NCBI RefSeq assembly: GCF_947568905.1
Contig: NC_079171.1
Span: 44,826,001 to 44,890,000, forward strand
Reading direction: 5' to 3'
DNA from: Ostrea edulis
Lineage: Eukaryota
Length of the DNA: 64,000 nucleotides
A program made the position numbers and the translations under genes. The notes under the pieces are model-generated. The model worked only from the letters and a program-made list of their open reading frames with translations, was not told the DNA's origin and did not search any database. Of this stretch, positions 16,224 to 18,653 are shown piece by piece; the stretch's first letter is position 1, and each line of letters opens with the position of its first letter.

Positions 16224-16224
<1 letters not shown>

Positions 16225-18653
16225 TGGAGGGAGGTCATGTGATCAAAAACCCGTGCAGGATTTACCCGCGCACCCATCACGGCATGATGGCGAGACCGTT
16301 AGACCTATGGTTATGTTTGATGTGGATATTCCTGATTAATGGTGCTTCAGATAATTGTAAGAAACTGTGCTGGCCCATTGAAGGAATTTATGATTGTACT
16401 AAATCTGGGAGCCGCTGTGTTCGGATGATGCGCTCCGCCTATATAGACACTGTACGTGAAATACGGGTTTTCAACTGTGAAGTCCAGCTTGTGACCGACA
16501 GGGTGGTAACAAATTGGCCAGTAATAAGAGACCGAAATTTCAACAGGTGCCCACGTAAGTAAAATTTTATTTGGTGTACATACTACAATATGATTAGAAT
16601 ATGACTGTGTTCATGTTATACATCGGCCATATGATATTACCAGTAATATGGAACTTGAAGTGTAAATATACATATACATAATGATAAAGAAAGATAATGT
16701 ACATGCTTAGCGTACATATATTTTACATCATACAAATCAGATTGTTATGGCAACAGAAGAAAAAAGGGGGGGGGGGTTATATTAAAAAAAGTGGCGGATT
16801 CATAATCACTACATAAACAAGAAAGATAACTCTTACCGGAAATGTAACCGTTGAATGAAATACGAGGTGTTCCGAATGCAATGGTAATAGGTCAATAAGA
16901 TGGTATGGAGAAAGCGTTGATACAAAAGGATCATCACTTAATTTTTAAAATATATTTGATTTAAAAATGATATTTTATTTTATGAGGTTGTGTACATGTA
17001 TTGAAATTGTTGTCTTTTCTTATCCCACTTTTTAAAAAAAAAAAAGTAAACAAGTTATTTACACTTCCATAATCATCTTTATGAGGAGAAGGCTATTACC
17101 AATTCATACAAAGCTCACCCCATAAAACATAGAATATAAACATTATTTAATTGACTTCTTCAATGCAAGCAAAATATGACTATTACCGACAATAAGCAGA
17201 CATTGCAAGTTACTATTTTTTTTTACAGAATCGAATGTGTCCTCACCGCCACCGATAACAACAACAGCTGAAGCCCAGAAGTTGCCATCACCGCCACCGA
17301 TACCAAAAACAGCTGAGACACAGAAGTTGTCATCACCACCACCGTTAACAACTACAGCTGAGGCCCACAAGTTGCCATCACCGCCACCGATAATAACAAC
17401 AGCTGAGACCCAGAAGTTGCCATCACCGCCACCGATAATAACAACAGCTGAGACCCAGAAGTTGCCATCACCACCACCACCAAGCAGGACCTACAACTCC
17501 CTAAATCTTGGTTCTAAAATTGTTGCAGGTCAGTGCTTAGTGAAAAATCAATAATTATTTATATAAAATATTTAAAAAAATTCAAAAATGAAGAAAAAAA
17601 TTATTCCATGAGTATGATGATGATGATGTGTTAAATGTACCAGTGTGTAACGGAAAATTGATAATTATGTATACTAAATATATATTACAAGTATATTCAA
17701 AGAAAAAATTGTTTTATTTTAGGATCCCATAAACATGATGATGATGAGGACGATGACCAACTGTTTGATGTACAAACAGCAACAGGTCAGCATATTATCA
17801 TACGCTTGTGCATTAACATAGGAATGTGTATTTGTACTTTAGTAAGTGTTTGTATTTCCATCAAAGAAACAATTTAAACTTGTGTATAAATCTAAAGAGA
17901 ACAAGACATTGTTTAGAAAACAAATATTTAAGAACGGAAAATCTTTAATCATAAAAGGAAGAAACTTCCCTCAGCATCTGAAATTGAATTAAACAGACTG
18001 TAGGCTGTATCTTCAGACAATGACTATGATACAGTATTTGATGCATCAGGTTTTTAATCAAAATATTATTTCAATGTTTTTTTATTTTATTTTATTTTTT
18101 GGGTCAAGGTACTGATTATTAGAATTTAACTTTAGATACAGCATCACTTTACCTTAACATCACTTTAGTAATTTGAGTTGTAATTTGAAATATAATCCAG
18201 TAAATTTAAGAATCATTGTACATTCTTTGATTATGTTTGGATATGTATTAAGAAAAGAAAAAATTGCATCATTATTAGACTTTATGTTGACACCAATTAT
18301 ATTTTATATTTGAAGGTTTCTTAACGTGGGCTCTTATTACAACCATGGGAGTTATTGTAGTTGCTGTTAAACAATGTATTAAGAAGAAATTGCTCCGTTG
18401 CCCATGTGAATGCAGGAATAATCCCCCTAATGCACCAGAGAACCCCCCTAATGCACCAGAGAACATTCCTCTTAACCATCCACATACCCCACCTCAGGCG
18501 GCATCGACACCAACCTCCTCCTCAAACCTTAGTCCTACACTTTCACTGGAAACAACTCTGACAACGGATACCTCCACAACTAGCACTAAAACACTAATTG
18601 AATCACCTGTTTCATCTCACACAAGATTCCAAACTGCTAAAAAATTATTTTAG
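16224..18653 (+). CDS. Predicted 5-exon type-I membrane protein, 354 aa (signal, Cys-rich domain, mucin-like stalk, TM, tail ending KKLF)
   Basis: Exons 16224-16554, 17229-17528, 17723-17785, 18017-18049, 18316-18653; all GT-AG phase-1 introns. Hydrophobic LWLCLMWIFLING; 16-aa TAETQKLPSPPPIITT repeats; TM GFLTWALITTMGVIVVAV followed by KQCIKKK. Confidence 0.72.

Follow-up and report, generated by a model that had tools for sequence, protein, structure and literature searches.

Polinton/Maverick elements and adenoviruses are related virus lineages. Among the adenoviruses, the E3 proteins (E3 CR1, E3/49K) are described as diverse, fast-evolving transmembrane proteins that bind host immune receptors (PMC4858740). 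Nematode Mavericks are reported to possess a low-conservation cargo region beside the left terminal inverted repeat (TIR), in which intron-bearing genes such as the wasp proteases and krma kinases reside (10.1101/2022.07.12.499685). Bivalves are rich in Polinton-like regions (Orthopolintovirales), and introns were ignored in the survey in question (10.1101/2025.04.19.649669); a spliced accessory gene of the sort described below would therefore be missed by it.

The locus studied here lies in a window of 64,000 nt of the Ostrea edulis genome (contig NC_079171.1), in which a Polinton, element B, includes a gene that is spliced and predicted to encode a membrane protein. Like the E3 CR1 proteins, the oyster proteins are diverse and rapidly evolving, possess a signal peptide as well as a transmembrane (TM) segment, and are encoded in a variable accessory region; hydropathy indicates a single TM, and identity comparisons reveal the rapid divergence. 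They differ in that the host is an invertebrate, the element is integrated, and neither a sequence or fold match nor homology to E3 proteins was found by Pfam, PDB-sequence or fold searches. The adenovirus E3 proteins are nonetheless the closest working analogy. The oyster slot also resembles the nematode cargo slot in its low conservation, its position adjacent to the left TIR and its intron-bearing genes; whereas the nematode slot holds unrelated enzymes thought to be host-derived, the oyster slot holds alleles of one membrane-protein family for which no host counterpart was found. No description of this family was encountered in the open literature searched; subscription papers and bioRxiv supplements may hold one.

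The first-pass annotation had placed the gene inside an element bounded by TIRs and a target-site duplication (TSD), and this was borne out in full. Element B occupies positions 12560-33076, with AGTAGT ends and 183-nt inverted arms that are 99% complementary, and by Pfam it codes for pPolB, an ATPase, a protease, a DJR capsid and an integrase (PF03175, PF00665 and PF00770/PF02902 above cut-off; PF04665 and PF21738 below). Because of its inverted ends, its 6-bp duplication and this core gene set, element B is a Polinton; it is alike to known Polinton/Maverick elements in its TIRs, 6-bp TSD, pPolB, RVE integrase, ATPase, adenain-like protease and capsid. Other copies of the family each have a 6-bp target duplication of their own. 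The features of the element are collected in Table 1.

Table 1. Features of element B and its membrane-protein gene (positions in the window).
Feature	Position	Strand	Remarks
Left TSD, 6 bp	12554-12559	+	Identical hexamer at 33077-33082
Left TIR of Polinton B	12560-12736	+	AGTAGT start, 18-nt repeats
Conserved promoter-like motif CATGTG..AAAAnnCCGTGCA..CGCG	16236-16271	+	Covers the first codons of the first-pass model
Probable start Met21/22 and predicted 22-aa signal peptide	16284-16349	+	Hydropathy peak at residues 25-41
68-aa six-cysteine ectodomain, hypervariable	16350-16554	+	No known family or fold; closes exon 1
Intron 1	16555-17228	+	GT..AG, phase 1; spliced out in run X5, retained in X1-X4
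Exon 2, Pro/Thr mucin-like stalk	17229-17528	+	45-nt x5.2 repeat at 17243-17478
Exon 3, acidic spacer, alternatively included	17723-17785	+	CAG/GTCAG donor end, conserved in 6/6 relatives inspected
Broken remnant of alternative read-through exon (second TM, basic stretch, acidic Tyr tail)	17786-18057	+	
Exon 5	18316-18653	+	TM about 18318-18368, juxtamembrane Cys cluster, Pro/Ser/Thr tail with HTPP
Terminal PVSSHTRF..KKLF motif in exon 5	18606-18650	+	
Repeat-rich 3' region	18654-20155	+	Right edge of swapped cassette; sister-element homology resumes at 20152-20182
pPolB	20167-24837	+	Stop at 22651-22653; conserved GT-AG intron-like gap near 23127-23257
Packaging ATPase, protease, major capsid, core-like protein, minor-capsid-like ORF, integrase	25556-30271	-	
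Right TIR (to 33076) plus right TSD	32900-33082	+	

Every family member inspected has the intron-like gap of pPolB at one and the same codon; a neighbouring Polinton of another family does not have it. The pPolB stop of element B was not present in the ten other copies read, and 21 nt near 23924 that are present in runs X2, X5 and X6 are missing from its pPolB. Element A (positions 1-12500), a second Polinton in the window and of another family, has its integrase, ATPase and pPolB upstream of the window; its ORFs include zinc-knuckle and weak Rep-like ones, and one at 7725-8072 (minus strand) is a PP1c-binding, GADD34/ICP34.5-like frame (PF10488) that is a possible helper of eIF2-alpha dephosphorylation. 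A related frame is located near 31500-31900 in family B elements. The part of element A that falls in the window yielded no copy of the membrane-protein gene. Two minus-strand frames encode, respectively, a CARD domain fused to PC4-like domains (30449-31519) and another PC4-like protein bearing a hydrophobic segment at its N-terminus (31963-32403); a Polinton protein that has a CARD could bear on the host's death or immune signalling. The short open frames at 13400-15500 (minus strand) have splice-like borders, which hints at another spliced cargo gene, divergent from that for the membrane protein; run X5 contigs cover parts of it. Positions 52300-64000 are occupied by a large higher-order tandem array with spacings of about 310, 445 and 506 nt.

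The membrane-protein gene of element B is real and spliced, and had been partly mis-modelled. Five exons (16224-16554, 17229-17528, 17723-17785, 18017-18049 and 18316-18653) had been proposed, and on paper these do connect in phase 1 to yield a 354-aa product ending TAKKLF. In run X5, intron 1 is spliced out (16554>17229) and exon 2 is joined straight to exon 5 (17528>18316), both at GT..AG borders and on one contig each (depth 5.6 and 7.9), with only 30 letters on the short side of the intron-1 joint. The type of run X5 is unrecorded ('?') and was taken as RNA-like solely from these GT-AG joints; the same introns are crossed unspliced in run X2, which derives from the same sample, and in runs X1, X3 and X4. 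Regions without contig cover (intron 3 in run X5, exons 1-3 in run X6) were excluded from the evidence. Exon 1 alone, employed as a database query, had as its sole match an identical RefSeq Ostrea edulis protein. RefSeq isoform X1 (343 aa) comprises exons 1, 2, 3 and 5, and RefSeq isoform X2 (322 aa) exons 1, 2 and 5; exon 3 is included in RefSeq isoform X1 only, being skipped in isoform X2 and in run X5. Exon 4 is absent from the run X5 joints and from both RefSeq isoforms, its donor is missing in the three relatives inspected, and the 354-aa protein was not found among the RefSeq isoforms or the run contigs. What stands of the five-exon, phase-1 model is a spliced gene in which exon 1 is joined to exon 2 as predicted; of the four introns proposed for a junction-read check, the first was confirmed, and in run X5 the exon 2 donor leads directly to exon 5, skipping exons 3 and 4.

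The type-I-like layout proposed at the same time (signal segment, Cys-rich ectodomain, mucin stalk, acidic spacer and TM) is supported by sequence and hydropathy, with one hydrophobic segment at residues ~242-260 of the 354-aa model (KD 1.95); the hydrophobicity of the exon 5 TM is moderate only. No Pfam family matched exons 1, 2 or 5. The start of the protein also required revision. Exon 1 begins at 16224 in the first-pass and RefSeq models alike, and the CATGTG..CGCG motif, which we take to be E-box/E2F-like in appearance, has a single match within the window. In five allele types this motif lies shortly 5' of the signal-peptide ATG, in a reading frame that differs between them. Since the first 20 codons are read in different frames across alleles, they are probably promoter or leader rather than coding, with translation probably starting at Met21/22; relatives begin at the equivalent Met.

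Among the ectodomains, six Cys and an R-E-I-R core are invariant and the remaining positions variable, with three disulfides predicted. AlphaFold2, supplied with an alignment of 43 sequences, produced a compact, mainly beta model (pLDDT 90, pTM 0.75). Pfam searches over the 43 ectodomains returned no consistent family (six families, with at most two members each), Foldseek yielded 0 matches at E<=0.001 against PDB and BFVD, and ESM Atlas gave no usable match to the ectodomain. The best Z obtained with VIA-align across 48,161 chains was 2.8, by which a new fold is neither shown nor excluded. The modelled fold thus appears to match nothing searched, its novelty being unproven. A PDB sequence search with the ectodomain alignment gave one row (E 0.8), which was rejected; ESM Atlas leads for the 322-aa protein (PRIMA1, mucin-21, CMV UL142/UL132) were all under 0.9 and were set aside; and an LRR-like ectodomain, suggested by pattern, found no support in the fold searches.

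With the element B ATPase as query, 25 elements of at least 83% identity were identified among the 150 matches listed for the assembly, and in 25 of 25 the slot between the left end and pPolB contains the gene or its remnants. They represent about 13 allele types, namely that of element B (four members), a second type (seven), three types of two each and eight singletons; the L042/L043 pair was placed by visual inspection together with a weak tail hit, and L051 from tail and read-through fragments only. An identical exon 1 is shared by four genome copies, which are at least 99.5% alike in DNA across the gene and each have a separate target duplication; diverged relatives occur besides. Three stretches near Polintons of more distant families (L053-L055), which may not be the equivalent slot, gave no match to the gene. 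A profile search of 1.84 billion representatives returned 44 hits, of which two (P0022 and P0044) were dropped from the alignment as repeat artefacts. In 20 clusters looked up, those with species names were all from Ostrea, Magallana/Crassostrea or Saccostrea, and homologues from Ostrea, Magallana and Saccostrea have the layout in common.

Among the matches listed, 21 of the 25 family elements are on contig C8, where one copy lies inside exon 1 of a sibling membrane-protein gene (4.12-4.14 Mb) and another inside a sibling pPolB (4.89-4.91 Mb); this pattern points to local hopping, or else to a liking for Polinton DNA as a target.

This census bears on an earlier suggestion that the gene is a captured host receptor. 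In favour of a host receptor gene recently taken up as passive cargo are the introns, uniform phase 1 and left-TIR position, which match the intron-bearing, host-derived cargo of nematode Mavericks. Yet every intact copy found is in a Polinton: none was detected elsewhere among 10 exon-1 matches and all slots (the genome searches scored 20 and 13 candidates), and the 20 clusters contained no named non-oyster homologue. Two orphan exon-1 matches do lie outside Polintons (C8:27.10 Mb and C8:26.23 Mb); both are broken fragments, with no core genes in the surrounding 50 and 40 kb. Moreover, deep allelic divergence combined with conserved motifs argues for long residence in Polintons and hence against recent capture, which we consider highly improbable.

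Within the family, the fate of the gene is uncoupled from that of its surroundings. Element B and T6 have cores that are 95.8% identical at the nucleotide level, with ectodomains at 30% and tails at 33% amino acid identity; the corresponding values for B and P8 are 94.3%, 38% and 37%, and for P7 and P9 97.7%, 59% and 39%. Overall, pairs with 94-98% identical pPolB DNA have ectodomains that are 30-59% and tails that are 31-39% identical, while P9 and L047 possess tails that are 59% identical on cores only 67% alike. The Spearman correlation of core identity with tail identity is 0.09, and with ectodomain identity 0.39 (the pairs not being independent). At the DNA level, P8 matches B at 91% up to 16233, shows no match until 20155, and then matches at 97% for 13 kb; in six second-type elements, homology to B resumes at 20182. 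Capsid proteins are 99-100% identical where the membrane-protein gene turns over. The sharp homology breaks and the mismatch of core and cargo therefore indicate that the gene is exchanged as a module, and, on these comparisons, it is in a cassette swapped between elements by recombination. In Saccostrea cucullata, RefSeq model P0008 joins a P8-like ectodomain end to a second-type-like stalk and is annotation-fused to an unrelated domain, a hint of the same modules recombining in another oyster genus.

The cassette appears to offer a second ending to the protein. Translation continued past the exon 3 donor runs into another TM and a basic stretch, followed by an acidic tail that shows an L-P-x-x-x-E and Y-D-x-x-F-D pattern. 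This frame is open to full length in nine of the 25 elements, and purifying selection acts on the exon in the six alleles tested: pN was lower than pS in all 15 pairs. In element B the acidic Tyr-motif output is broken: the frame meets a stop at 17875-17877, after the TM, and two frameshifts and an in-frame stop fall between 17860 and 18003. The supposed exon 4 is the final piece of this degraded exon. The remnant region also contains the only cassette DNA common to B and P7 (71% over 17740-18047). Among annotations, a full-length read-through isoform is represented by one unspliced ORF call (P0058), with no transcript evidence.

The regular tail was compared across 16 distinct sequences, 12 from the O. 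edulis genome and four from other oysters. E3-19K and ERGIC-53 are KKxx-bearing ER proteins, and the TAKKLF end of the element B protein likewise puts lysines at -4/-3, from which it had been proposed that the protein is held in the ER by COPI retrieval, as is adenovirus E3-19K, and intercepts host proteins there. One other allele ends KKKLF. PMC2120234 presents where the lysines sit with respect to the C-terminus as the main determinant of retrieval in yeast and mammals; these two alleles could accordingly be retrieved, and that of element B might still be. In the family, however, KKxx/KxKxx is found at the C-terminus of two of the 16 tails; shuffling of the last 15 residues leads one to expect 1.1 (p 0.30), so that the count does not exceed chance. 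Since position defines the signal and 14 tails lack it, retrieval cannot be the family function. Furthermore, five tails preserve the KKL core away from the terminus, and a K/R-x-L-(x)-F/L core is retained even where it is no longer terminal; retention ahead of extra residues implies that being terminal is not what the core is there for. About 90 residues separate the KK from the membrane in a tail of about 94 aa, whereas KKxx ER proteins such as Wbp1 (PMC2120234), which share the lysine placement, have short tails. The predicted stalk offers another argument, as long O-glycan-type stalks point to post-Golgi transit. The lysines are thus genuinely present in this copy, while ER retention as their purpose is, in our estimation, improbable.

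Other motifs are far more constant. TR[S/A/F/L] is present in 16 of 16 tails (1.1 in shuffles), directly followed in 12 of 16 by an RxL-type consensus, [RK]xLx{0,1}[FL] (0.67 in shuffles), although the shuffle p-values overstate significance because the patterns were picked after viewing the alignment and the tails are related. The docking consensus was taken from PMC12356897; in the large screen reported there, fewer than 15% of strict RxL consensus peptides bound cyclins. S/T-P sites number two to nine per tail, HTPP-like sites being common, and the combination of RxL consensus, disordered tail and S/T-P sites occurs in 12 of 16 tails. Ten of the 16 end in F, L, V or I. We treat the RxL cyclin-docking reading of the tail as a lead only. 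An RVxF/PP1 reading fits only five of 13 tails and was discarded.

The TRS motif is presumably similar to nucleosome arginine anchors, a likeness for which the literature search found nothing. Viral proteins can dock on the nucleosome acidic patch through short arginine-anchor motifs (PMC9040877), which provides a precedent for a signalling receptor mimic: ligand binding or shedding would free or uncover the tail, through a putative cleavage or processing step, to dock cyclin-CDK and perhaps nucleosomes, and so time element activity to the cell cycle. The constant TR and RxL motifs with their S/T-P sites, the presumed E2F-like look of the conserved upstream motif and the two switchable tails are all consistent with such a role. 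Consensus matches are, however, poor predictors of binding, and a sensor does not obviously need a hypervariable ectodomain; we judge this reading quite unlikely. In its fullest form, it would be a polymorphic Polinton receptor with a swapped sensing head of new fold, a mucin stalk and a spliced cyclin-CDK/chromatin or tyrosine tail, steering the host cell cycle. This is a long shot; if true, the integrated element would read an outside cue, either a host immune ligand or a rival element.

A small variable head, a mucin stalk and a Cys-rich juxtamembrane tail commonly make up attachment proteins, and the oyster protein fits this layout. It could then be the attachment protein of a membrane-wrapped Polinton particle, also blocking its receptor in carriers, with the alleles being receptor-specificity variants. 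The occurrence of the gene in every family element resembles that of a core gene more than of optional cargo, and the near-identity of the capsids while this gene turns over would agree. A precedent exists in the nematode Maverick fusogen MFUS-1, which likewise has a signal peptide and a single TM (10.1101/2022.07.12.499685); MFUS-1 is, however, an 866-aa protein of herpes gB-like fold, whereas the oyster protein measures 300-470 aa, its globular head of 68 aa sitting on a mucin stalk. A class III fusogen would have an ectodomain of about 750 aa, yet the globular part here is 68 aa, the rest being low-complexity stalk, and element B contains no fusogen-sized ORF. The gene is, moreover, spliced and seen in a public run with patchy core-gene cover (contigs cannot rank expression), sibling elements are inserted into each other, one directly in exon 1 of another allele, and attachment does not call for a long tail bearing RxL-type and TR motifs. 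We regard an attachment role as unlikely, if still worth bearing in mind.

The interpretation we tentatively prefer, and consider quite possible without calling it probable, is by analogy with the adenovirus E3 CR1 proteins: a polymorphic, recombination-swapped cell-surface protein that would interact with the host. A signal peptide from Met21/22 and a type-I-like topology are predicted; the stalk, predicted to be O-glycosylated, would lift the 68-aa ectodomain off the membrane, and the juxtamembrane Cys cluster is predicted to be acylated. We infer transport to the plasma membrane because no ER-retrieval signal is conserved and the majority of tails end in a hydrophobic residue. There, the hypervariable ectodomain would engage an immune or surface receptor of the host, protecting element-carrying cells, and the binding of a fast-evolving host protein may drive allele turnover. 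The tail would engage a conserved cytosolic partner, most likely cyclin-CDK at the RxL-type motif, which may phosphorylate the S/T-P sites, and alternative splicing would switch one ectodomain between the RxL/TR tail and the acidic Tyr-motif tail. An arms race between element and host, played out at the cell surface, is the likely cause of the allele turnover; the alleles are too divergent for a positive-selection test, so old balanced diversity or relaxed constraint could also account for it.

Every examined member of this oyster Polinton family would appear to possess a hypervariable, swappable, two-tailed membrane-protein cassette. Surveys blind to introns miss such genes, and proteins labelled 'rickA-like' or 'mucin-2-like' by RefSeq in oysters can be Polinton genes. 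A foldable 68-aa domain that occurs in about 13 natural versions may serve as a probe with which to fish for its oyster receptor. It is an unsettled question whether animal Polintons are inert transposons or host-interacting viruses, and a locus that outpaces the capsid and polymerase while coding for a predicted surface protein would be the signature of an ongoing arms race.
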